Both the position numbers and the translations under genes were made by a program. This document shows, one piece after another, positions 14,947-27,850 of a DNA stretch of 64,000 nt. Position 1 is the stretch's first letter. Each line of letters starts with the position of its first letter. The notes under the pieces are model-generated. The model searched no databases and was not told the origin of the DNA. It worked only from the letters and a program-made list of their open reading frames with translations. Location: positions 297,038 through 361,037 of the forward strand of contig CBDETC010000002.1 of NCBI GenBank assembly GCA_965242845.1, written 5' to 3'. Origin of the DNA: Balneolaceae bacterium (GTDB lineage: Bacteria > Bacteroidota > Rhodothermia > Balneolales > Balneolaceae).

Positions 14947-15591
14947 ATGGCGCAGATTTTCCCTAAGTGGACAAATCAAGTTCCTCGAAAATTACTAATC
15001 GGACTTATCGTCACTGCGAACGCAGTTATTCTTGGAATTTGGTACTTCTTCTCACCCGAATTTACCGATGTAGGTTACGCACCTGTTCAACCGGTTCCTT
15101 ACTCACACAAAATACATGTAGACAAACTTGGGCTCGATTGCCAATACTGTCACACATCTGTGTTTGAGTCTAAGCAGGCTAATGTTCCGCCTACTCAGAC
15201 TTGTATGAACTGCCATAATCAGATCAAAACGGACAGTGAGAAACTTGCTCCTATCCGTGAAAGCTGGGAAACTGGTAAACCAGTTGAATGGGTAAGAGTA
15301 AACAATCTTGCAGATTACGCTTACTTCAACCATGCTGCCCATGTAAATGTGGGAGTAGGCTGCGAAAGCTGCCATGGAAGAATTGACAAAATGGATGTGG
15401 TGTATCAAGCTGAACCATTAAGTATGAGTTGGTGCCTCGATTGCCATAGAGAACCCGAGAAGTATCTCCGCCCTGTTGAAGAAGTAACCACTATGGGTTA
15501 CAAAGCGGAGAACCAAAAAATACTTGGAAGCGAATTAGTTAAGAAAAATAATGTAAGCCCTCCTCAGTATTGCCAGGGCTGTCATTATTAA
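14947..15591 (+). CDS. actA: Alternative Complex III subunit ActA, pentahaem cytochrome c
   Basis: N-terminal TM anchor and five CXXCH motifs (CQYCH, CMNCH, CESCH, CLDCH, CQGCH). First gene of the act cluster. Confidence 0.85.
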   Translation: MAQIFPKWTNQVPRKLLIGLIVTANAVILGIWYFFSPEFTDVGYAPVQPVPYSHKIHVDKLGLDCQYCHTSVFESKQANVPPTQTCMNCHNQIKTDSEKLAPIRESWETGKPVEWVRVNNLADYAYFNHAAHVNVGVGCESCHGRIDKMDVVYQAEPLSMSWCLDCHREPEKYLRPVEEVTTMGYKAENQKILGSELVKKNNVSPPQYCQGCHY

Positions 15592-15623: not shown

Positions 15624-18600
15624 ATGAGCGAAGTTACACAGAATACATACTGGAAAAGCTTAAACGAATTAGCTCAGAATAAAGAATATCAAAATTTTGT
15701 TGAGCGTGAATTCCCTGAGAATGCCACTGAATTAAAAGATGGTGTTTCTAGAAAAGGATTCCTCCGAGTGATGGGAGCGTCTATCGCACTTGCAGGTTTT
15801 GCTGCATGCCGTCGACCGGTTCAAAAAATTCTTCCTTATTCTCAACAACCTGAAGACATTGTTCCCGGCATTCCTCTTTTTTATGCTACTGCAATGCCAT
15901 TTCAGGGTAACCTTACTGGGTTAGTGGTTGAAAACCACCAGGGACGACCAACTAAAGTTGAAGGAAATGACCTTCACCCTGCCAGTTCAGGAAATACCAA
16001 TTCTTATCATCAGGCATCAATCCTTGAAATGTATGATCCTGATCGCTCAAGAGGGCCGCTTCGTAATGGAAGTAAAGCCACAACGGACGAATTTATTAGC
16101 TTTGCTGGCGAGCATTTCTCTGATACAAATAAAAATATCCTATTTATATCAGAAGCCAATTCTTCCCCAACCTTCCAGGCACTTAAAGAAGAAGCACTAA
16201 ACAAATTCAGAAATGCCAGCTGGGTTACTTTCGAACCTTTTGGTGAGAATGCTATTGTTGAGGGAACCCAAATCGCTTTCGGAAGCAGACTCCGTACTCT
16301 ATATAATTACACGAACGCAGATGTAATTGTATCTCTGGACGATGACTTCCTTTCTCCTACGCATCCTAATAATGTTGAATACGCTCAGCAAGTTACGTCA
16401 CGAAGAAAAGTAACTAGCACCAGTGATTCAATGAGCCGAATCTATTCTGTTGAGAATGGATTTACTCTTACTGGCTCCTATGCAGATAACAGGCTAAGAG
16501 TCAAAGCTAGCGAAATTGAAGCTTTTGCAAATGCATTAGCAGGAGAGCTTTCTTCTAGAATTAGCGGACTTAACGCATTCAGTGAGGTTAATAACCCCTT
16601 CTCTGGAAGTGATTTTATTACGGTGATGGCTGATGATCTTGCTTCTAATGCAGGACGTTGCGCAGTTTCTATTGGTTTTGATCATTCACCGAGTGCTCAC
16701 GCTATCATCAATGCAATCAATGTGGCATTAGATAATGTTGGAAGCACTGTAAGTTATCTTGAAGTTCCATCCATTGATGATCAAAGTAATTTTGAAGCAT
16801 TTTCTAGTGCAGTAGCTGCACTTAATGCAGGTGATGTTGATACTGTTGTATTACTCAATACGAATCCCGTATTCACTGCTCCTGCTGATTTATCTTTTGC
16901 AAGTGCTCTTTCAAACGCTGGAGAAGTAATTCAGTTCGGAAGTTATAGAGATGAGAGCTCTAAAAATGCAAACTGGCATGTAGCTCGCTCTCATTACCTT
17001 GAGGCTTGGGGTGATGGATACTCATTCGGTGGTGCACGTTCTGTAATTCAACCACAGATTCAGCCATTATATGACTCTTTAAGTGATATCGAATTCCTTG
17101 GCGCTATTGTAAATGGAGAGAAAGTGTCTGGCCATGACCTGGTTAAAAACACTTTCAATGGATTTTACCGCACGAATTTTGAAAATCGCTGGAAAGATAT
17201 CCTTCACGATGGAATTGACATCACTGATGGATATAGAGCTGCGAATGTTCGACTAAGATCAGTTTCCTCGACCGATACCGCTCCTATTAATGGTATTGAA
17301 GTAGTAATTCGACCGGACTACTCTATTTATGATGGTCGCTTTGCAAACAATGGTTGGCTACAGGAACTCCCAGATCCGATGACTAAAATTACCTGGGATA
17401 ATGTTGCGCTTATGAGCCCAACTACTGCAGCAAGCATGGGCATTGAAAATGAAGACCTTGTTAATGTAGCAGTAAATGGAGCTGCGATCACTATTGCGGC
17501 ATGGATACAGCCAGGTCATGCTGATGATTCCATTACACTTAATGCAGGTTATGGAAAAGAAGGTATTGGACGTGTAGCTGACGTAACTTCTGATAGTTCT
17601 CAGCTTTTTGATAGTTCGATGGTATCAGGTGGAGTGAATGTATATCCCCTGGTACAGTCAAATGCTCTTCTATTTAATTCAGGAAGTATTTCAAAAGCTG
17701 GTGGCACTTACAGCATCGCTTGTGTTCAAGATCATCACAGTCTGGAAGGTCGTGATATGTATCGTCAGGCTACGCTTGAGAAATACAAGAAAACACCTGA
17801 ATACGCTTCATTCGCCTATGTTCATAAATATGAAGTTCCTGGTCAAAAGGAAGCAAATGAAAAAGGTGAAGATGATCTTATCTCCCTCTTTGATGAGCAA
17901 ACATACCCTGACTATGAGCCACAATGGGGAATGGCCATTGATTTGAACTCATGTTTTGGTTGTGGTGTATGTATTATTGCCTGCCAAAGTGAGAATAACA
18001 TTCCTGTTATTGGAAAAAGGGAAGTTAGTCGCGGTCGTGAAATGCATTGGATCAGAAATGACCGCTATTATATGGGCGACGAGCATGATCCTCAGGCAGT
18101 TCATCAGCCTGTTCCTTGTATGCACTGCGAATTGGCTCCTTGCGAGCAGGTTTGTCCGGTAGCTGCTACTACGCATAGTGATGACGGAATGAACCAAATG
18201 ACTTACAACCGCTGTATTGGTACTCGTTATTGCGCAAACAACTGCCCATTCAAGGTTAGAAGATTCAACTTCTTCAACTACCCAAAAGAATATCTGACTA
18301 CCGGAGAAGATCCAGATATCATCCAAATGGCGATGAATCCTGAAGTAACTGTTCGTTTCAGAGGGGTAATGGAAAAATGTACGTACTGTGTACAACGAGT
18401 TAACCGGGCGAAAATCAATACTAAAATTGAAACTGGTTCTCCAAAGCCTGCAGATGGCACTGTGCAAACGGCTTGTCAGCAAGCTTGTCCTGCTGATGCC
18501 ATTTATTTTGGAGACTTGACTGATAAGGACAGCGAAGTTTCAAAAATGAAGTACAACGAAAGAAATTATCTGATGCTGGAAGAACTGAATGTTCGTCCAA

Positions 18601-18677
18601 GAACATCTTATATCGCCAAATTGACCAATCCGAATCCGGCATTGGTAGATGAGTCTAAACAGGAAGCTGCCCACTAA
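15624..18677 (+). CDS. actB: ACIII subunit ActB (molybdopterin-oxidoreductase-like domain fused to a 4Fe-4S ferredoxin domain, Tat-variant signal)
   Basis: 1017 aa. Tat-like [17 protein letters not shown], with RK in place of RR. The C-terminal third has Cys clusters [37 protein letters not shown] and CQQACP. Confidence 0.85.
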
Positions 18678-20104
18678 TGAGTAAATACGAATACATACCG
18701 GAACCCGCTCTTGTTAAGGGAAATCACGATTTTGCCAGTATTACCAAGCTGGTAACCGATGTAAACCTTCGGCCCACCCCAAAATTATGGTACCTATTCA
18801 TGCTTATGTCGAATGCTCTTCTTGGAGTATTCCTTTTCGCCGTTGGATACCTAATTTGGGAAGGAACCGGAATCTGGGGTCTGATGAACCCTGTTGGTTG
18901 GGGATGGGCGATTATCAACTTTGTATGGTGGGTTGGTATTGGTCACGCCGGAACCTTGATTTCAGCCATTCTATTCCTCTTTAGGCAGGATTGGCGTACC
19001 GCGATCAACCGTTTTGCTGAAGCAATGACCATTTTCGCGGTAATCTGTGCCTTGATGTTTCCAGGTATTCACGTAGGTCGAATTTGGGTTATTTACTGGG
19101 TATTCCCACTGCCGAATCAAATGGCAATGTGGCCAAATTTCAACTCTCCCCTTCTTTGGGACGTGTTTGCCGTTTCTACGTATTTCACAGTTTCTTTGCT
19201 TTTCTGGTATGTAGGTCTAGTTCCGGATTTTGCTACGCTGCGCGACAAAGCTACTGATAAAGTTCGACAGATAGCCTATGGTATCGCCTCATTAGGATGG
19301 ACCGGAAGTGGTCGAGCATGGTGGAATTACGAAAAAGCTTATATGATTTTAGCCGGTTTGGCTACTCCACTGGTACTTTCTGTACATACCATTGTATCCT
19401 TTGACTTCGCCGTTTCAATGATTCCGGGATGGCATACTACCATCTTCCCTCCTTATTTCGTTGCTGGTGCGATTTTCTCAGGTTTTGCCATGGTACTAAC
19501 CTTGATGCTTGTTGCCCGAAAGGTGTATGGCATGGAAGACATCATGACGGATGACCACATGGAGAAGATGAATATCATTATCCTGGTAACCGGTTCCATG
19601 GTAGGTTTTGCCTATATGATGGAGTTCTTCATTGCATGGTATAGCGGTGTGGAATATGAAAAAGCAATTTTCATGCTTCGAGCGACAGGGCCTTATGCCT
19701 GGGCATACTGGATTATGATGTTGTGTAATGTGATTTCTCCTCAGGTATTCTGGTCGAAGAAATTAAGACGTAATGTTAAGTTCACTTTCTTTATTTCCAT
19801 TGTAGTGAACATTGGTATGTGGTTTGAGCGATTTGTAATTACAGTGACTTCACTCGCTACCGACTATTTGCCTTCGTCGTGGGATTACTTCTCACCTACT
19901 ATTTGGGATGTACTTACTTATGTAGGAACCTTCGGAATTTTCTTCACTTTCTTCCTTGCATTCTTGCGCTTCCTGCCAATGATTGCGATTGCAGAAATTA
20001 AAGCGGTGATGCCACAGGCTGATCCTCATAATTATGACGAGGAAACCCAGGAGTATCATCCTCACGAAATTGAAGTTCCAACCCCTAAAGCTGAAACGGT
20101 ATAA
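18677..20104 (+). CDS. actC: ACIII subunit ActC (NrfD/PsrC-like quinol-interacting membrane subunit)
   Basis: 475-aa polytopic protein in the canonical position after actB. The ATG overlaps the actB stop (TAATG). Confidence 0.8.
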
Positions 20105-20109
20105 ATACT

Positions 20110-20655
20110 ATGAGTAAAGAGACCAATACTAAGCTTTACGGCATCCTGGCTGAATTCAAAAACCCAAAGGCGTTAATCGACGCTTCTAAAAAAGTGGTTG
20201 AAGCCGGATATGATAAATTTGATACCTACGCTCCTTTTCCTATCCATGGAATCGACAAGGCAATGAGCCTTAAGAAATCTAAACTTGGATGGATTGTACT
20301 TGGGCACGGTTTACTTGGCTTCAGTGGAGCTATACTTATGATGTACTGGATGTCAGCAATTGACTATCCAATTAACATTAGTGGTAAGCCATTTTTTAAT
20401 GCACCTGCATGGGTACCTGTTACTTTTGAATTAACGGTACTTCTCTCTGCTTTTGGTGCGGTGTTTGGAATGTTCTTCTTAAACGGACTTCCAAGACTAA
20501 ACAACCCTTTGTTTAATGTTGAGCGCTTCAAAAAGGCCACTGATGATGGTTTCTTTGTATGTATTGAAGCAAAAGACAGCAAATTCCAGGAAGATTTGGT
20601 TCGCCAGCTTTTTGAAGAAGCTGGAGCTACTCATATCGAGGAAGTGTATGACTAA
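20110..20655 (+). CDS. actD: ACIII subunit ActD (DUF3341)
   Basis: 181 aa with a soluble N-terminal domain (LYGILAEFKNP...YDKFDTYAPFPIHG) followed by two TM helices. Canonical position in the cluster. Confidence 0.75.
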   Translation: MSKETNTKLYGILAEFKNPKALIDASKKVVEAGYDKFDTYAPFPIHGIDKAMSLKKSKLGWIVLGHGLLGFSGAILMMYWMSAIDYPINISGKPFFNAPAWVPVTFELTVLLSAFGAVFGMFFLNGLPRLNNPLFNVERFKKATDDGFFVCIEAKDSKFQEDLVRQLFEEAGATHIEEVYD

Positions 20656-21679
20656 CAGTAACCACCGAATATCATTCATGCATTTAAAAAAGACATTATC
20701 CATTGTTGTGCTTGGTGCTGTGCTTGTGGGATGTAGAGGTACTATCTCTGAGAAATCAGCTATCCATCCTAACATGAACATGGATCAGCAACCCAGAAAA
20801 GAAGCGCAAGAAGAAAATGCGTTCTTTGAGGATGGTCGTTCAATGAGACCTCCTGTTGAAGGAACCGTTGCTCGTGGTTACCGAAAAGCTGACCTCGCTT
20901 ATTATGAAGGAGTAGACGAAAATGGTGATTGGATTGCTGAATCACCTGTAGAATTCACTAAATCCTTCCTTTATAGAGGAAAAGAGCGCTACGAAATTTA
21001 CTGTACCCCTTGCCACGGTATCGTTGGTGACGGACAGGGAATCATTATGACTGGCCAATACGGATACGTACCTGCTCCTACTTTCCATCAGGATAGATTA
21101 AGAGAAGCTCCGGATGGAGAACTTTATTCTGCTATCTATAATGGAGTAAGAAACATGCCTTCTTATGCTCATCAGGTTAAAGTTGAAGATAGATGGGCAA
21201 TCGTAGGATATATCCGAGCATTGCAAGCAAGTCAAAATGCGAGCGAAGAAGAACTCGCTGACTATGATATTGATATGGATGAATTACAAGCTGAGTTCAC
21301 TGCTGAGCAGGAACGGTTAGAAGCTCTCGCTGAAGCCCGAACTCCTCAAGATGTGGGAGAAGTTGTTGCTACTGCCGCCAGAGGGCAAGAATTAATTACT
21401 CAATATGCTTGTGCTGTTTGCCACTCAAACGATGGAAGCGCACTGGTAGGCCCATCTTGGTTAAATGTTTATGGCAGTGAAGGCCAGGTGGTAACAGAAG
21501 CAGGTGAAACGATTACTGTTGTTAAGGATGATGAGTATCTCATCGAATCGATTGTTAATCCATACGCAAAAATTGTGGACGGGTATGATCCTCTTATGGC
21601 TAATGCCTATGGTTCTCTTTCCGAAAGTGACCTGCAATCAATCGTGGAATACCTGAAAACCATCACGGACAATAACTAA
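20648..21679 (+). CDS. actE: ACIII subunit ActE, lipoprotein cytochrome c with an extra C-terminal class-I cytochrome c domain (two haem sites)
   Basis: Lipoprotein-like signal KKTLSIVVLGAVLVGC. CTPCH at 21002-21016 and CAVCH at 21410-21424. I chose the start at 20648 (ATG 8 nt inside the actD end); 20678 is an alternative. The track start at 20516 overlaps actD by 140 nt and was rejected. Confidence 0.75.
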   Translation: MTNSNHRISFMHLKKTLSIVVLGAVLVGCRGTISEKSAIHPNMNMDQQPRKEAQEENAFFEDGRSMRPPVEGTVARGYRKADLAYYEGVDENGDWIAESPVEFTKSFLYRGKERYEIYCTPCHGIVGDGQGIIMTGQYGYVPAPTFHQDRLREAPDGELYSAIYNGVRNMPSYAHQVKVEDRWAIVGYIRALQASQNASEEELADYDIDMDELQAEFTAEQERLEALAEARTPQDVGEVVATAARGQELITQYACAVCHSNDGSALVGPSWLNVYGSEGQVVTEAGETITVVKDDEYLIESIVNPYAKIVDGYDPLMANAYGSLSESDLQSIVEYLKTITDNN

Positions 21680-21705: not shown

Positions 21706-22920
21706 ATGAGTCATAAGCCTACAATAACAGATTCTTTACAATTCGCCCAAGACACCAAGCTTCCTAAGATTTTATTCGGAATTGGAATCACAGCTTTGGT
21801 ACTCAGCGCTATTGGCGGTTTTTTTAATGCTGAACAGTTTTTCTTCTCTTACCTGGTAAGTTTCACCTTTTTTACTGGAATTGCCCTGGCTTCTGTTTTC
21901 ATGGTAATGTTCCATCATATTACCAAGTCTAAATGGGGAGTAGTAGTAAGGAGAATTCCAGAAACATTTGGATCTAACCTAAAATGGTGGGCAATCGCTT
22001 TCTTACCAATTCTTGGTGGAATGTCTATTCTTTATCACCATTGGACTGACCCAACCCTCTTTGACCCTAATTCACCGAATTACGACTACATAGTTGCTGG
22101 AAAGGAAGCATATTTAAACACTCCTTTCTTCATTATTCGACAAGTTATCTACTTCGCCATCTGGGGATATGTAGGACACAAACTTTATAAAGCTTCCGTT
22201 GAGCTTGAAAAAACAGGTGATTGGGGAATCACCACATTGATGAGAAAAATCAGTGCCCCTGCTATTCCGTTATTTGGTTTATCTATAGCTTTTGCCAGTT
22301 TCGATTGGTTAATGTCTCTGGATCCACACTGGTTTTCCACTATGTTTGGTGTGTATTTCTTCGCCATTAGTTTCCAGAGCTTCTGGGCTATTATGATCTT
22401 GATGGTATTCTTCCTCCAGAGAAATGGATATTTAAAGAACACGATCGGTCAGGCTCATCTCTACGATCTTGGTGCATGGCTCTTTGCTTTCACTGTATTC
22501 TATGCATATATCGCATTCAGCCAATTCCTGTTGATCTATTATGCTAACCTTCCGGAAGAAACACTCTGGTTTTACCACAGAATGGAAGGTAGTTGGAAAT
22601 ACATCACTTACGGTCTTTTGCTTTTCCGTTTTGTGTTACCATTCCTTGTACTGTTGAACAGAGAACAAAAGCATAGAAGAGGAATTTTAAGATTCGTGGC
22701 TATTGTAGTGGTGGTAATGCACTTCCTTGAAATCTACTGGATTGCCATGCCTACACTTAATGAGCATGGAATTCATTTTAGCTGGATCGATATAACCACA
22801 TTCTTAGGCCTTGGCGGAATTTTCTTTGGACTATTCTTCCACAAATTCAAACAAAACAGCATGATTCCAGAGAATGACCCAAAACTGGACGAATGCCTTG
22901 AAAAAACGTATCACCATTAA
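21706..22920 (+). CDS. actF: ACIII subunit ActF (second NrfD-like membrane subunit)
   Basis: 404-aa polytopic protein in the canonical position after actE. Confidence 0.7.
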   Translation: MSHKPTITDSLQFAQDTKLPKILFGIGITALVLSAIGGFFNAEQFFFSYLVSFTFFTGIALASVFMVMFHHITKSKWGVVVRRIPETFGSNLKWWAIAFLPILGGMSILYHHWTDPTLFDPNSPNYDYIVAGKEAYLNTPFFIIRQVIYFAIWGYVGHKLYKASVELEKTGDWGITTLMRKISAPAIPLFGLSIAFASFDWLMSLDPHWFSTMFGVYFFAISFQSFWAIMILMVFFLQRNGYLKNTIGQAHLYDLGAWLFAFTVFYAYIAFSQFLLIYYANLPEETLWFYHRMEGSWKYITYGLLLFRFVLPFLVLLNREQKHRRGILRFVAIVVVVMHFLEIYWIAMPTLNEHGIHFSWIDITTFLGLGGIFFGLFFHKFKQNSMIPENDPKLDECLEKTYHH

Positions 22921-22933
22921 TTTTTGATCGATT

Positions 22934-23317
22934 ATGTCGAATCACATTGAAGATTCAAAGACGAAGATTTCTTTAACCTCTGGAGATGATGTTACTTTAG
23001 AGACTGTAGATAGTTCATTCGCGGGAGCAGTAAGTCATGGTGTGAATGACGATGCCATGGACTTTGGAAAGCTCTTCTTTTGGTCAGGATTAGGGATTGT
23101 TACTGTTATCGTTTTTGTTGTTGGATTAATCTTTTTCGCTCAATTCAGTTTCTTTAATGCACAAAAAACTGTTTCTGAAAACAGCTCTTACCTGGAAATC
23201 ACAGAAATGAGAGCAACTCAAAATGAGCAACTAAATTCTTTTGGCGTAGTTGACCTGGAAGATGGTGTATACCACATTCCTATCGATGAAGCCATCAATA
23301 ATATAGCTGTCGATTAA
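22934..23317 (+). CDS. small single-TM protein of unknown function inside the respiratory operon
   Basis: 127 aa with an acidic N-terminus, one TM (LFFWSGLGIVTVIVFVVGLIFFA) and a C-terminal soluble segment ending VYHIPIDEAINNI. Gaps to both neighbouring genes are 13 nt or less. Confidence 0.5.
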   Translation: MSNHIEDSKTKISLTSGDDVTLETVDSSFAGAVSHGVNDDAMDFGKLFFWSGLGIVTVIVFVVGLIFFAQFSFFNAQKTVSENSSYLEITEMRATQNEQLNSFGVVDLEDGVYHIPIDEAINNIAVD

Positions 23318-23323
23318 TTACTG

Positions 23324-24157
23324 ATGAGACGCATTGCACTGTTAGCATTTTATTTGCCTGCAGTGCTCATGATTCCTTTTCAAGCCGAAGCTCAACTTAA
23401 CAAAGAGCAGCCTGAAGCACTGCAAGGCGTTGGAGTAGATGAATACTTAGGAGAATACATTCCTTTAGATGCCAAATTCTCAAATTCATCAGGCGATAGT
23501 ATAACTATTGGCTCCCTCCTCTCTGATGGCAAACCCGTTATTCTAAATCCTCTTTATTACGAGTGCCCAATGCTATGCGGTCTGGTAATAGATGGTGTGT
23601 TAAATGTAGCAGATGATCTGGCATGGCAGGTTGGTAAGGATTACGACATCATCTCTTTTAGCATTGATCCTGAAGAAAATCATGAATTAGCAGCTAGTTA
23701 CAAAGAAAAATACCTTTCCAAACTAAATCAGCCACGCGCACAGGAAGGATGGTATTTTTTAACTGGAGAGAAAAAAGAAATTGATAAAATTATTGATGCC
23801 ATTGGCTTTAAGTACAATGAAGTGGAAGGAACCGGAGAGTTCGCACATAGCGCAGCAATTATAATGCTGAGCCCAGAAGGGAAAATCACTCGCTATCTAT
23901 ATGGTATCCAATACAATGAGTTTGATGTACGCAATGCACTGTATGAATCAGCCGATGGAAAGATCGGAAGTACCCTCGAGAAGGTGCTTATGTTTTGCTA
24001 TCAATTTGATCCAAATTCCAATAGTTATGTACCCGTAGCCATCAATATTATGAAGGTTGGCGGCTTGGCTACACTAATAATTCTTGGTATCTTTCTCAGC
24101 CTCTTTTGGCTTCGCGAAAGATCAAAAAAAGTAACCACTAATATCGATTTCCAATAA
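23324..24157 (+). CDS. SCO (Sco1/SenC) family copper chaperone
   Basis: CPMLC (CxxxC) motif in a thioredoxin-like context, with a conserved His (FAHSAAIIMLSPEGK). Has an N-terminal signal peptide and an extra C-terminal TM helix. Confidence 0.8.
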   Translation: MRRIALLAFYLPAVLMIPFQAEAQLNKEQPEALQGVGVDEYLGEYIPLDAKFSNSSGDSITIGSLLSDGKPVILNPLYYECPMLCGLVIDGVLNVADDLAWQVGKDYDIISFSIDPEENHELAASYKEKYLSKLNQPRAQEGWYFLTGEKKEIDKIIDAIGFKYNEVEGTGEFAHSAAIIMLSPEGKITRYLYGIQYNEFDVRNALYESADGKIGSTLEKVLMFCYQFDPNSNSYVPVAINIMKVGGLATLIILGIFLSLFWLRERSKKVTTNIDFQ

Positions 24158-25098
24158 TGGGCAGACTATTCGATTTCATGCTCCCGGAAAACAAATCTCC
24201 GCTTACGGCAGATTCTACCGACGGGCTTTTTCACTTCATCAACGAAGTGAGTCTCATCTTCTTAATTGGTATAACAATTGCACTTGTTTACTTCGCCATT
24301 AAGTACAAAAGAAAATCAGAGGACGACAAAACTCCTGTAATCACGCACAACAACACACTTGAAATTACCTGGTCGGTAATCCCTCTTCTTATTGTGATGG
24401 TAGTCTTTGGATGGGGATACTCAGGATGGCTAAACCTAAAAGCTGTTCCTGATGATGCATACGAGATTCATGTGACAGGTTTTAAGTGGAACTGGAGTGT
24501 GAGCTATGAAAATGGAGCACAGACTTTAAATGAAATTCACGTCCCAAAAGGACGGCCCATTAAACTGGTTATGCAGTCGCGTGATGTCCTTCACTCCTTC
24601 TTCGTACCTGATTACAGGGTAAAGCACGATGTGGTTCCTGGACGATATACTTATGTGTGGTTCCAGGCTGAGGAATCTGGTGAGTCTGTAGTATTCTGTA
24701 CCGAGTATTGCGGAACCAGTCATTCCGATATGTTAGCTAAAGTAATTGTTCATGAGCCAGAAGATTTTGAAACCTGGTTAGAGCTAAATGGCGGTGGCAT
24801 TCAGGGAACACCGGTAGAACAAGGTCAGCAATTAGTTGAGCTACAGGGATGTCAAACCTGCCACTCTGTGGATGGTTCACCAATGATTGGTCCTTCATTC
24901 AAAGGTATTTGGGGCAGAACAGAGCAACTTGCAGATGGCAGTACTTACACTGTTGATGAGAATTATATCAGAGAATCTATTCTTTACCCTGGAGAGAAAG
25001 TCGTTGCTGGATATGACAATGTAATGACTCCTTATGAGGGCAGACTTAGCGACGATGAAATCACAAACATCATTGAATATTTAAAAACTCTTGAGTGA
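24157..25098 (+). CDS. ctaC: cytochrome c oxidase subunit II with fused C-terminal cytochrome c (caa3 type)
   Basis: CuA site HSFFVP...[14 protein letters not shown]-terminal CQTCH at 24850-24864. The ATG overlaps the sco stop (TAATG). Confidence 0.9.
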
Positions 25099-25099
25099 T

Positions 25100-26833
25100 A
25101 TGGCGGTAGCGGAAACTAAAAATATGACTACACTACAGGTAAAAAGGTTCATTCCTTCTGAGAATCCTACGAATACCTATCTAACAGATGAAAAGGGTGT
25201 CTGGGCATGGATGACTACCGTTGACCACAAGAAGATCGGGATCATGTATCTCGTATCTGTTGCAATCTTCTTTGCAGTAGCTGGTTTTTTAGCTATTGCA
25301 TTAAGAACTGAGCTTTGGACTCCAGCAAAGACTTTTATTGAAGCTGATACTTACAACCAGCTTTTCACCATCCATGGTGCATTAATGGTATTCTTTGTTT
25401 TGATTCCAAGTATTCCCGCAGCACTTGGGAACTTTGTATTGCCGATGCAATTAGGTGCAAAAGACGTAGCCTTTCCGAGATTAAACCTGGCTAGTTTCTA
25501 CATCTATGTGATTGGAGCGGTATTCACGTTCATCTCTCTTTTGAATAATGGCTTTGATACAGGCTGGACGTTTTACACACCTTACAGCTCTGATGCGAAC
25601 TCATTAGGAGTAATTTGGGTAACTCTTGGGGTATTCATCCTTGGTTTCTCTTCGATTCTGACGGGTACAAACTTCATTACCACCATACATAAGCTGAGAG
25701 CACCAGGTATTACCTGGAACCGGCTTCCATTGAATATTTGGGCATTATATGCTACTTCCATTATCCAGGTACTGGCAACTCCGGTACTTGCAATTACCAT
25801 CCTTCTTCTTTCAATGGAGAACATTTTGGATATCGGGATTTTTGATCCGGCCAAAGGTGGTGACCCAGTATTATACCAGCACTTCTTCTGGTTCTATTCC
25901 CACCCTGCTGTATATATCATGATTGTTCCGGGCTTTGGAATCATTTCTGAGGTTATCTCAACCTTCTCTAAGAAAACAGTATTCGGATATTGGGCGATTG
26001 CGCTTTCGTCTTTGGCCATTGCATTTATTGGTTTCCTTGTATGGGGACACCATATGTTCACTTCAGGACAATCTGCAGTAGCTACTACTGTATTTTCATT
26101 CCTAACCTTCCTGGTAGGTATCCCAACGGGTATCAAGATTTTTAACTGGATAGCGACCCTGTATAAAGGCTCGATCGATATGAAGACGCCGATGTTGTAT
26201 GTCTTCATTTTCTTGTTCTTATTTTCTATCGGTGGTTTTACCGGTATTATGCTTGGAGCACTTTCTGTAGACATCCACCTTCATGATACTTATTACGTGG
26301 TGGCTCACTTCCATTATGTGATGATGGGTGGAACCTTAATTGCTCTGTTAGCAGGCCTGCATTACTGGTGGCCAAAGATGACTGGTAAGATGTACAATGA
26401 AATGTGGGGTAAGATTGCAGCTGTATTAGTCTTTATTGGCTTTAATATGACCTTCCTTCCACAGTTTATTATGGGAGCACAAGGAATGCCAAGACGTTAT
26501 TACAACTATATTGATCAATTCCAGCCATTCCATCAGACCTCTACGATTGGATCTTATATACTTGGAGTAGCTTTCCTGATCATCTTGGTGTACCTACTTC
26601 ATTCTTTATTTGCAGGTAAGAAGGCCCCTTCAAACCCATGGAATAGCAGGGCATTGGAATGGCAATCAACTTCACCTCCAGATTTCCACAACTTCAGTCA
26701 TACTCCTGTTGTAATCAACGGGCCTTATGACTACCACAAGCCAATGGAAGAATTCCAGCTTGGACTAGCAGTTTCACACAACGGTCATGGGGAACACCAT
26801 GAGACGGAAACTCAAGAAACTGAAAAAGCTTAA
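25100..26833 (+). CDS. ctaD: cytochrome c oxidase subunit I (A2-type haem-copper oxidase)
   Basis: WGHHMFTSG and HFHYV histidine blocks across 12 TM helices. Helix VI reads [11 protein letters not shown] chose the ATG at 25100; the track ORF begins at a TTG at 25091 that overlaps the ctaC stop. Confidence 0.9.
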
Positions 26834-26856: not shown

Positions 26857-27522
26857 ATGGCGAATCATTCAGCTTCCCAACCAGCTCATGTTCAGCATCA
26901 TTTTGTGGATTCAGATCAACAGTTTGAATCAGCAAAAATGGGGATGTGGGTCTTTTTGGTAAACGAAATCCTCTTTTTCGGCGGGCTATTCTGTGCTTAT
27001 ATCATATTCAGAGCATGGTATCCTGAACTTTTTACACAAGCAGCTCTAGAACTCAATAAACTTTGGGGAGGAGTAAACACCGTAGTTCTTATTGGTAGTT
27101 CTTTAACCGTAGCTATGGCTATTCGTTCTGCTCAAAAGAATCAAATACGTGGATTACGAATCAATCTTTTGATCACTATAGCGCTTGCATGTGTCTTTAT
27201 GGTCATCAAGTACTTCGAATATGAGCATAAATTACACTTAGGTATTGCTCCTGGTTCTTTCTGGAATCCTACTGCAGAAGTTTTGCATGAGCTTTCGCAT
27301 CCTAAGGCGAATATTTTCTTCGGCATCTACTATATGATGACCGGCATTCACGGTCTTCACGTATTAGTTGGTATCGGCTTAATGATTTGGTTGTATATCC
27401 GAGCTGGTAAAGGACACTTCAGTAGTGAGTACTACACACCTGTCGAGATTACCGGGCTGTACTGGCACCTGGTTGACTTGATCTGGATTTTCCTATTCCC
27501 ACTACTTTACTTAATTGAATGA
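26857..27522 (+). CDS. ctaE: cytochrome c oxidase subunit III
   Basis: 221 aa, 5-7 TM helices. Blocks GIYYMMTGIHGLHVLVG and TGLYWHLVDLIWIFLFPLLY are typical of subunit III. Confidence 0.85.
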   Translation: MANHSASQPAHVQHHFVDSDQQFESAKMGMWVFLVNEILFFGGLFCAYIIFRAWYPELFTQAALELNKLWGGVNTVVLIGSSLTVAMAIRSAQKNQIRGLRINLLITIALACVFMVIKYFEYEHKLHLGIAPGSFWNPTAEVLHELSHPKANIFFGIYYMMTGIHGLHVLVGIGLMIWLYIRAGKGHFSSEYYTPVEITGLYWHLVDLIWIFLFPLLYLIE

Positions 27523-27535
27523 GAGGTTTTTAGAA

Positions 27536-27850
27536 ATGAGCGAACACAATCACGAACACCACGTTTCTTCAGTGAAACAACTTTGGGCAGTAGGTACTGC
27601 ATTATTTATCCTAACTATATTGACGGTTGTAGTTTCCAATCTCGGGCTACCCGCTCCTTTTGATATTATCTCAGCACTAATCATTGCTTTTGGTAAAGCA
27701 TATTTAGTAGCTGCATTCTTTATGGGATTATATTGGGACAATAAGTTTAACACCCTCCTTCTTATTGGAGCTTTTGTATTCTTCATTATCATGGTAACCA
27801 TAACCATGCTGGATACTATGTTCCGAAACGATGTAGTCCCATCTTTCTAA
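27536..27850 (+). CDS. cytochrome c oxidase subunit IV (prokaryotic COX4 family)
   Basis: About 104 aa with three TM helices and a His-rich N-terminus, in the canonical position after subunit III. The ATG at 27536 is preferred over the in-frame TTG at 27515. Confidence 0.6.
   Translation: MSEHNHEHHVSSVKQLWAVGTALFILTILTVVVSNLGLPAPFDIISALIIAFGKAYLVAAFFMGLYWDNKFNTLLLIGAFVFFIIMVTITMLDTMFRNDVVPSF

Follow-up and report, generated by a model that had tools for sequence, protein, structure and literature searches.

Within a 64,000-nucleotide stretch from a Balneolaceae bacterium (contig CBDETC010000002.1, positions 297,038 to 361,037 of the forward strand; hereafter the window), the gene actE is predicted to encode a two-haem form of ActE, the lipoprotein subunit of alternative complex III (ACIII). 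The ActE domain known from other bacteria is followed here by an acidic tether and by a complete second cytochrome c domain, which belongs to the same subfamily as the c domain carried by subunit II (CoxB) of the caa3 oxidase encoded downstream. This two-haem form is found almost throughout the family Balneolaceae, and the added domain probably serves as a built-in electron carrier.

The two-haem architecture of ActE

The elements of the gene are the following.

20648..21679, + strand: actE, 343-aa two-haem lipoprotein subunit of ACIII (the end coordinate includes the stop codon)
20723..20734, + strand: lipobox LVGC, residues 26-29, Cys29 being the predicted lipidated residue
20735..21235, + strand: canonical ActE haem domain, residues ~30-196
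21002-21016, + strand: first haem motif CTPCH, residues 119-123
21236..21370, + strand: acidic Ala/Glu-rich tether, residues 197-241 (~45 residues)
21275-21337, + strand: helix predicted within the tether, residues 210-230 (21 residues, with low-confidence segments on either side; AlphaFold2 (AF2) model)
21371..21676, + strand: extra class-I cytochrome c domain, residues 242-343
21410-21424, + strand: second haem motif CAVCH, residues 255-259
21596-21598, + strand: axial Met317 of the extra domain

A previous inspection of the DNA (the sequence-only reading) had placed the lipobox, the two CXXCH motifs and the acidic linker in this open reading frame (ORF), and all of them are present in the 343-aa translation. 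Pfam recognises two c-type domains in ActE, PF13442 (residues 110-189) and PF00034 (residues 243-339), and no COX2 or cupredoxin match; the extra domain is fused to ActE instead. While the canonical ActE has one CXXCH in about 160-210 aa, the present protein has two in 343 aa. None of the curated NCBIfam models attains its cut-off for this protein, and any names that its homologues have in the databases are unspecific, namely "c-type cytochrome" and "mono/diheme cytochrome c family protein". The Met codon located 10 codons downstream, at 20678, is the start point of many homologues and may be the true start of actE rather than 20648; the architecture is the same in both cases.

Residues 20-203 align end to end with ActE of Rhodothermus marinus (6F0K_E, 209 aa; E 2.8e-68), and this core also matches the ActE chains of Roseiflexus, Chloroflexus and Flavobacterium (6LOD_E, 8K9E_E and 6BTM_E). 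Foldseek matched it to 6F0K_E (57% identity), 8K9E_E and 6LOD_E. In the alignment of 39 homologues C119, C122, H123 and M170 are invariant, and so is Cys29 (39/39), which is aligned with the lipobox region of R. marinus ActE (PMC5928083). Judged from its sequence, the product of 20648-21679 is an ActE orthologue with a variant architecture. Its N-terminal lipoprotein signal is present with the lipobox cysteine, the lipidation itself being a prediction.

The extra domain had been described as a complete class-I cytochrome c domain akin to that of caa3 subunit II, and at the level of the subfamily this description holds. Like the caa3 subunit II-type (1W2L-like) domains, it combines a CXXCH, a distal Met ~55 residues downstream and the class-I fold. 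Among solved structures its closest relative is 1W2L, the c domain from subunit II of the R. marinus caa3 oxidase (E 1.3e-18, 44% identity), on which the AF2 model of the domain superposes with a template modelling (TM) score of 0.89 and a root-mean-square deviation of 1.9 A (Foldseek), the CXXCH and the axial Met being aligned. Within the bacterium's own 3.9-Mb genome nothing else matches it apart from the c domain of CoxB: in a single BLASTP comparison ActE 245-339 and CoxB 222-312 share 42% identity and 63% positives (E 5e-20), far beyond chance.

The linker had been taken for a simply flexible one. This picture has to be amended, since in the AF2 model residues 210-230 are largely helical; a low-confidence hinge follows at residues 231-237. 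Linker identity ranges from 34 to 84% between genera, the acidic Ala/Glu/Leu-rich pattern being kept and D209 and A230 being near-invariant.

Compared with R. marinus ActE (6F0K chain E), the Balneolaceae protein shows the same operon position, the lipobox, homology over the full length of the former and the same downstream Sco-caa3 genes. But R. marinus ActE, with its single haem at a potential of about +165 mV, stops near residue 209, whereas that of the Balneolaceae continues for a further 140 residues, i.e. the tether and the second haem domain. Likewise, the 1W2L domain is located on the oxidase (the acceptor), fused to the CuA cupredoxin, whereas its Balneolaceae counterpart is located on the exit subunit of ACIII (the donor).

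Weak matches in the searches with the Balneolaceae ActE include the dihaem cytochrome cc (QcrC) of the actinobacterial bcc-aa3 supercomplexes (7RH6) and a Paracoccus denitrificans cytochrome c552 that is anchored in the membrane and has an acidic linker (3M97). QcrC and cytochrome c552 are analogous in function, since in both systems a diffusible cytochrome c is replaced by a c domain that is second or tethered and lies on or beside the quinol oxidase. Both systems are built on an unrelated bc-type complex III, and their likeness to the extra domain of ActE is limited to the generic class-I fold.

Conservation, distribution and gene neighbourhood

We sampled 401 genomes of the phylum for ActE matches, 60 of them from the Balneolaceae. 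A full-length match (residues 1-342) was obtained in 59 of these 60 genomes and, outside the family, in a single genome from a sister family within the order (G308). In all the other sampled families of the order, class and phylum the match is limited to ActE residues ~15-205, i.e. ActE is monohaem. The best 120 homologues in a collection of 5.8 billion proteins are all 321-497 aa long with both Pfam domains, and the named ones belong to Balneola, Gracilimonas or Balneolales. On the tree of the ActE N domain the two-domain proteins of the family form one clade (97/93), and G308 is on a long branch with no firm position. A single gain of the extension at or near the base of the Balneolaceae would be the simplest history.

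The sequence-only reading had considered the case of a dihaem ActE being the common and already described state of this lineage. It is indeed common in the family, but we found no description of it, nor of Balneolaceae ACIII, in the literature searched, the coverage of which left out subscription-journal ACIII reviews (e.g. Refojo and co-workers), where a prior mention is possible.

The haem site of the extra domain is retained: the CXXCH and a Met at the homologous position are kept in 22/22 extra domains from 16 genera. In the closest pair of genes (the window and locus L009, synonymous divergence dS ~0.85, unsaturated) the ratio of nonsynonymous to synonymous substitutions (dN/dS) is lowest in the extra domain, at 0.025, against 0.043 in the N domain and 0.069 in the linker. 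The extra domain is under strong purifying selection and is kept family-wide; it is presumably loaded with haem. A decaying or haem-less appendage devoid of an electron-transfer role is effectively excluded by the conservation of both ligands, by the low dN/dS and by the presence of the domain in nearly all genomes of the family.

Variations on this theme were encountered. One Balneolaceae genome (G368, genus g14, 2.4 Mb) is the only sampled genome of the family without any ActE match. In another (G232, genus g5, locus L012) the N domain groups with the window's genus group (98/94) and the C domain with that of L019 in the Balneola-type cluster (99/92), a conflict which points to exchange or conversion of domains inside the family. 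Some other families of the phylum have actD and actE joined into a single ORF of 379-387 aa (L004:1431-2570 and L005:1959-3122 (minus strand)), encoding the ActD membrane hairpin and then a monohaem ActE; this fusion explains the open frames of ~380-420 aa around many phylum-level ActE matches.

Trihaem variants, with two 1W2L-type c domains after the ActE core, also occur in uncultured relatives: P0115 (497 aa), P0136 (491 aa) and P0164 (464 aa, its source being labelled Balneolales bacterium MAG). A Ser/Thr/Glu-rich low-complexity linker of ~65-75 residues carries the second added domain of P0115 and P0136. No trihaem form was found among the 60 sampled Balneolaceae genomes. The trihaem and dihaem proteins follow the same principle, the C-terminal addition of monohaem c domains, and differ in domain number and lineage. 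The C-terminal extension of ActE by c domains is a recurring theme.

The act genes, the Sco gene and the caa3 genes are on a single strand with tight junctions. Besides actE they are the following.

14947-15591, + strand: actA, 214 aa, five CXXCH, without an extra N-terminal c domain
15624-18677, + strand: actB
18677-20104, + strand: actC
20110-20655, + strand: actD (PF11821, E 1e-67)
21706-22920, + strand: actF, 404 aa, identified from its position and synteny
22934-23317, + strand: small single-pass ORF of 127 aa in the actG position, between actF and the Sco gene
23324-24157, + strand: Sco
24157-25098, + strand: coxB (TIGR02866 CoxB, E 1.7e-57)
24799..25095, + strand: C-terminal cytochrome c domain of CoxB (caa3 subunit II), CoxB residues 215-313, with CQTCH at 24850-24864
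25091-26833, + strand: coxA
26857-27522, + strand: coxC
27515-27850, + strand: coxD

ActF gave no match at E <= 0.01 in Pfam-A and NCBIfam. The 127-aa ORF at 22934-23317, for which no Pfam or NCBIfam match was found either, probably corresponds to ActG; L003 and L007, the latter from a Rhodothermus-like genome, have an ORF of comparable length in this slot.

Forty-three loci were fetched for a comparison of synteny. The position of actE between actD and actF is common to 40+ related loci, and L003, L006 and L007 have the same gene order as the window. The succession of act genes, small ORF, Sco gene and caa3 genes is identical in the two-domain and the monohaem lineages, ActE measuring 199 aa in the sister family (L006) and 209 aa in the Rhodothermus-like genome (L007). 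In the loci examined the caa3 genes are always downstream of the act genes and CoxB always has its c domain. As all of this is common to the monohaem and two-domain loci, the extension of ActE is the sole difference between them.

Respiratory context and possible role

The genome that contains the window is 98.9% complete, and neither a cytochrome b of the bc1/b6f type nor a HiPIP (an iron-sulfur protein of high potential) was found in it; ACIII is therefore its only evident quinol:cytochrome c oxidoreductase. Its c-type cytochromes are only a handful. A cbb3 oxidase operon is located outside the window.

G000:C3:655000-666000 (L049): fused CcoN-CcoO (726 aa), CcoQ, monohaem CcoP (201 aa), CcoG, CcoH, CcoI and CcoS

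Taking together the architecture of ActE, its conservation and the precedent of related systems, we favour, with moderate confidence, the extra domain as a tethered electron carrier from ACIII to caa3, possibly also to cbb3. ActE would have gained, at or near the base of the Balneolaceae, a C-terminal acidic and partly helical tether of ~45 residues together with a His/Met-ligated class-I c domain of the "caa3 subunit II" subfamily. Quinol would be oxidised at ActC, and the electrons would then pass via the FeS1 cluster and the five ActA haems to the fixed ActE haem, these first three steps being deduced from homology to solved complexes. From the fixed haem they would reach the tethered haem domain, and from there haem c of CoxB, CuA, haem a and finally a3-CuB. 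A side branch from the tethered domain to cbb3 is possible, this oxidase being present in most, not all, family members. The tethered domain would in this way take the place of a diffusible cytochrome c or HiPIP. The absence of a bc1/b6f cytochrome b and of HiPIP favours such a role, as it would leave a need for a carrier. On a movement of the domain between donor and acceptor, the low-confidence hinge at 231-237 and the predicted TM score (pTM) of 0.41 are indirect evidence only.

The nearest precedent is Flavobacterium johnsoniae, where a mobile extra c domain on ActA feeds an aa3 oxidase without c domain (PMC8552683). As in the Balneolaceae ActE, an additional monohaem c domain is tethered to ACIII (ACIII-aa3, PDB 6BTM), and it is thought to reach the oxidase without a soluble carrier (PMC8552683). 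The differences are in the placement: in F. johnsoniae the domain is N-terminal on ActA, mobile, and faces an oxidase lacking a c domain, whereas in the Balneolaceae it is C-terminal on ActE, ActA is a plain pentahaem subunit and the oxidase keeps its c domain.

Several points weigh against a tethered carrier. The evidence for haem loading, mobility and partner is indirect, and the AF2 model (39 homologues) is of low overall confidence (pLDDT 64.7, pTM 0.41) and so uninformative on the relative placement of the domains. At other places the genome encodes two small lipoprotein cytochromes c of uncertain role, of 196 and 127 aa, which could be carriers. The mostly helical tether would also fit a fixed, docked position. 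Finally, R. marinus ACIII reduces caa3 directly, without soluble carrier, with a monohaem ActE (PMC5928083), and the caa3 of the Balneolaceae has its own tethered c domain, so that the added value of a further one is unclear. The sequence-only reading had proposed that the extra domain makes for a fully hard-wired chain from quinol to O2. A built-in carrier role is plausible, but R. marinus is hard-wired with a monohaem ActE, and therefore the extra domain is not what enables the hard-wiring.

The tethered domain might instead be a branch point that mainly feeds other acceptors, such as cbb3 or a dihaem peroxidase-like protein, while caa3, as in R. marinus, is supplied directly by the fixed haem of ActE. 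We regard this as possible, though somewhat unlikely. A complete cbb3 operon is present, yet there is no bc1 complex or HiPIP to feed it, and R. marinus ActE gives directly to caa3; other acceptors have been suggested for F. johnsoniae ActE (PMC5928083, PMC8552683). The distributions do not coincide, however: cbb3 was found in 36/48 family genomes (and not in the other 12 sampled) as against 59/60 for the two-domain ActE, and it is also present in the monohaem families f2, f4, f6 and f9. On account of this mismatch cbb3 was rejected as the sole reason for the extra domain.

It is rather unlikely that the domain is a static extension of the wire, permanently docked on ACIII and adding one more haem to it. 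Such a domain could be seated at the unassigned periplasmic density observed above ActE in the R. marinus map (PMC5928083), and a tether with a conserved predicted helix of 21 residues, instead of low-complexity sequence, would suit it. But the helix is bordered on either side by low-confidence segments, and the third c domain of the trihaem relatives P0115 and P0136 is carried by the long low-complexity linker typical of mobile domains.

Broader still, and in our view improbable, is ActE as a distribution hub. The captured carrier domain would serve both the co-encoded caa3 and the unlinked cbb3, in a cell lacking bc1, HiPIP and perhaps a dedicated soluble cytochrome c; it would sit at the density above ActE in the R. 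marinus map, and the trihaem relatives would be versions with a longer reach.

Two solutions for connecting ACIII to an oxidase were known, that of Flavobacterium (mobile c domain on ActA, aa3) and that of Rhodothermus (monohaem ActE, c domain on caa3). The Balneolaceae arrangement of pentahaem ActA, dihaem ActE and caa3 is a third configuration, with c domains on both partners. In all other respects ACIII module and oxidase very closely resemble the R. marinus system of known structure, so that the comparison comes near to a natural experiment in domain addition and could show what a tethered carrier contributes: reach, rate, or branching to a second oxidase. The existence of cultured Balneolaceae (Balneola, Gracilimonas) makes the role testable. 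The dihaem ActE is nonetheless a modest variation on known built-in electron shuttles, of moderate significance mainly as a natural comparison to R. marinus.

Origin of the extra domain

The 104-aa extra domain was compared exhaustively by HMMER with 1.84 billion representative proteins. With a cut-off of E <= 1e-3 it matched 3762 clusters, and with E <= 1e-10 it matched 752; among them are cytochromes c that are small and anchored, CoxB proteins bearing one, two or three c domains, and multi-domain proteins. Some 80 proteins of a single domain outscore the organism's own CoxB. The C-terminal domain of ActE (ActE-C) has a mean identity of 43% to the c domain of CoxB (CoxB-c) from its own family, 41% to CoxB-c from other families and 40% to unrelated representatives; within groups the mean is 50% among family ActE-C and 60% among family CoxB-c. 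ActE-C being nearly equidistant from all these sets, its block-for-block alignment with the organism's own CoxB, from which the sequence-only reading had deduced a matched donor-acceptor pair, is the signature of a large subfamily and reveals no special match.

The same reading had suggested a duplication to be looked for by phylogeny. In a quick tree of 301 rows, 20/22 ActE-C fall in one clade (97%, Shimodaira-Hasegawa-like approximate likelihood-ratio test, SH-aLRT), within a group (95%) that excludes the CoxB-c of the lineage. A more careful tree of 144 rows conflicts with it, ActE-C and CoxB-c being placed together in a poorly resolved group (84/94). More weight is given to a clean set of 85 rows made of the loci and 20 outgroup representatives. 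In its best tree 20/21 family ActE-C form a clade (96/93) that has the class-wide radiation of CoxB-c as a whole for its sister. A constraint that joins family ActE-C and family CoxB-c in one clade costs only 3.7 log-likelihood (lnL) units, with p 0.41 in the approximately unbiased (AU) test, and the monophyly of family ActE-C is not rejected (p 0.45). With the 144 rows the AU test had given p 0.040 for the clade of family ActE-C and family CoxB-c, and p 0.034 for that of all ActE-C and all locus CoxB-c. These values were discounted because the unlabelled representatives among the 144 rows are probably in part fragments of CoxB or ActE from the same lineages, which would penalise the constraint. 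As the alignment has only 98 columns, deep nodes, time of duplication and donor are beyond its resolution.

These data bear on a recent duplication within the lineage, in which a copy of the c domain of the organism's own CoxB would have been joined to actE, 3 kb upstream, when the family arose, donor and acceptor then co-evolving as a matched pair. We hold this for doubtful. It would agree with the single shared subfamily, with CoxB-c being the only other match in the genome, with the low cost of the constrained clade, and with the ActE-C of the family's basal genera, which scores better against the window's CoxB-c than against the window's ActE-C (L025: E 1.7e-29 vs 1.1e-22). But the identity to own-family CoxB-c does not rise above the background of the subfamily, and every genome has some unrelated protein closer to ActE-C than its own CoxB-c. 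Moreover the best 85-row tree places the ActE-C clade outside the class-wide CoxB-c and apart from the family CoxB-c, and the 301-row tree splits ActE-C from CoxB-c by the 95% SH-aLRT branch. On these comparisons of sequences the extra domain shares its subfamily with CoxB-c, the own CoxB is not demonstrably the donor, and recent copying is neither supported nor rejected (AU p 0.41). An older split, or a faster evolution of ActE-C after copying, would give the same tree picture.

Two candidates from the collections were set aside. P0185 (155 aa, Fodinibius), considered as a free-standing sister cytochrome, has the ActE linker sequence at its N terminus and is most likely a split or mis-started ActE. 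P0158 (422 aa) has a generic cbb3-type c domain at its N terminus and is not an ActE.

The 1W2L-type c domain has been reused widely as a module: it occurs on its own, in tandem copies, and attached to CoxB or to ActE. CoxB proteins with two or three tandem copies of the same c domain (the caa3 "cc" and "ccc" forms) are common in public collections (P0124-P0127, P0129, P0134 and others), and P0122 (938 aa) has seven copies. P0128 (351 aa), encoded on a 3.5-kb metagenome contig, joins an unrelated N-terminal region to two c domains, one nearest to the family CoxB-c and the other nearest to the Balneola-type ActE-C; the protein may be a genuine fusion or a product of chimeric assembly.

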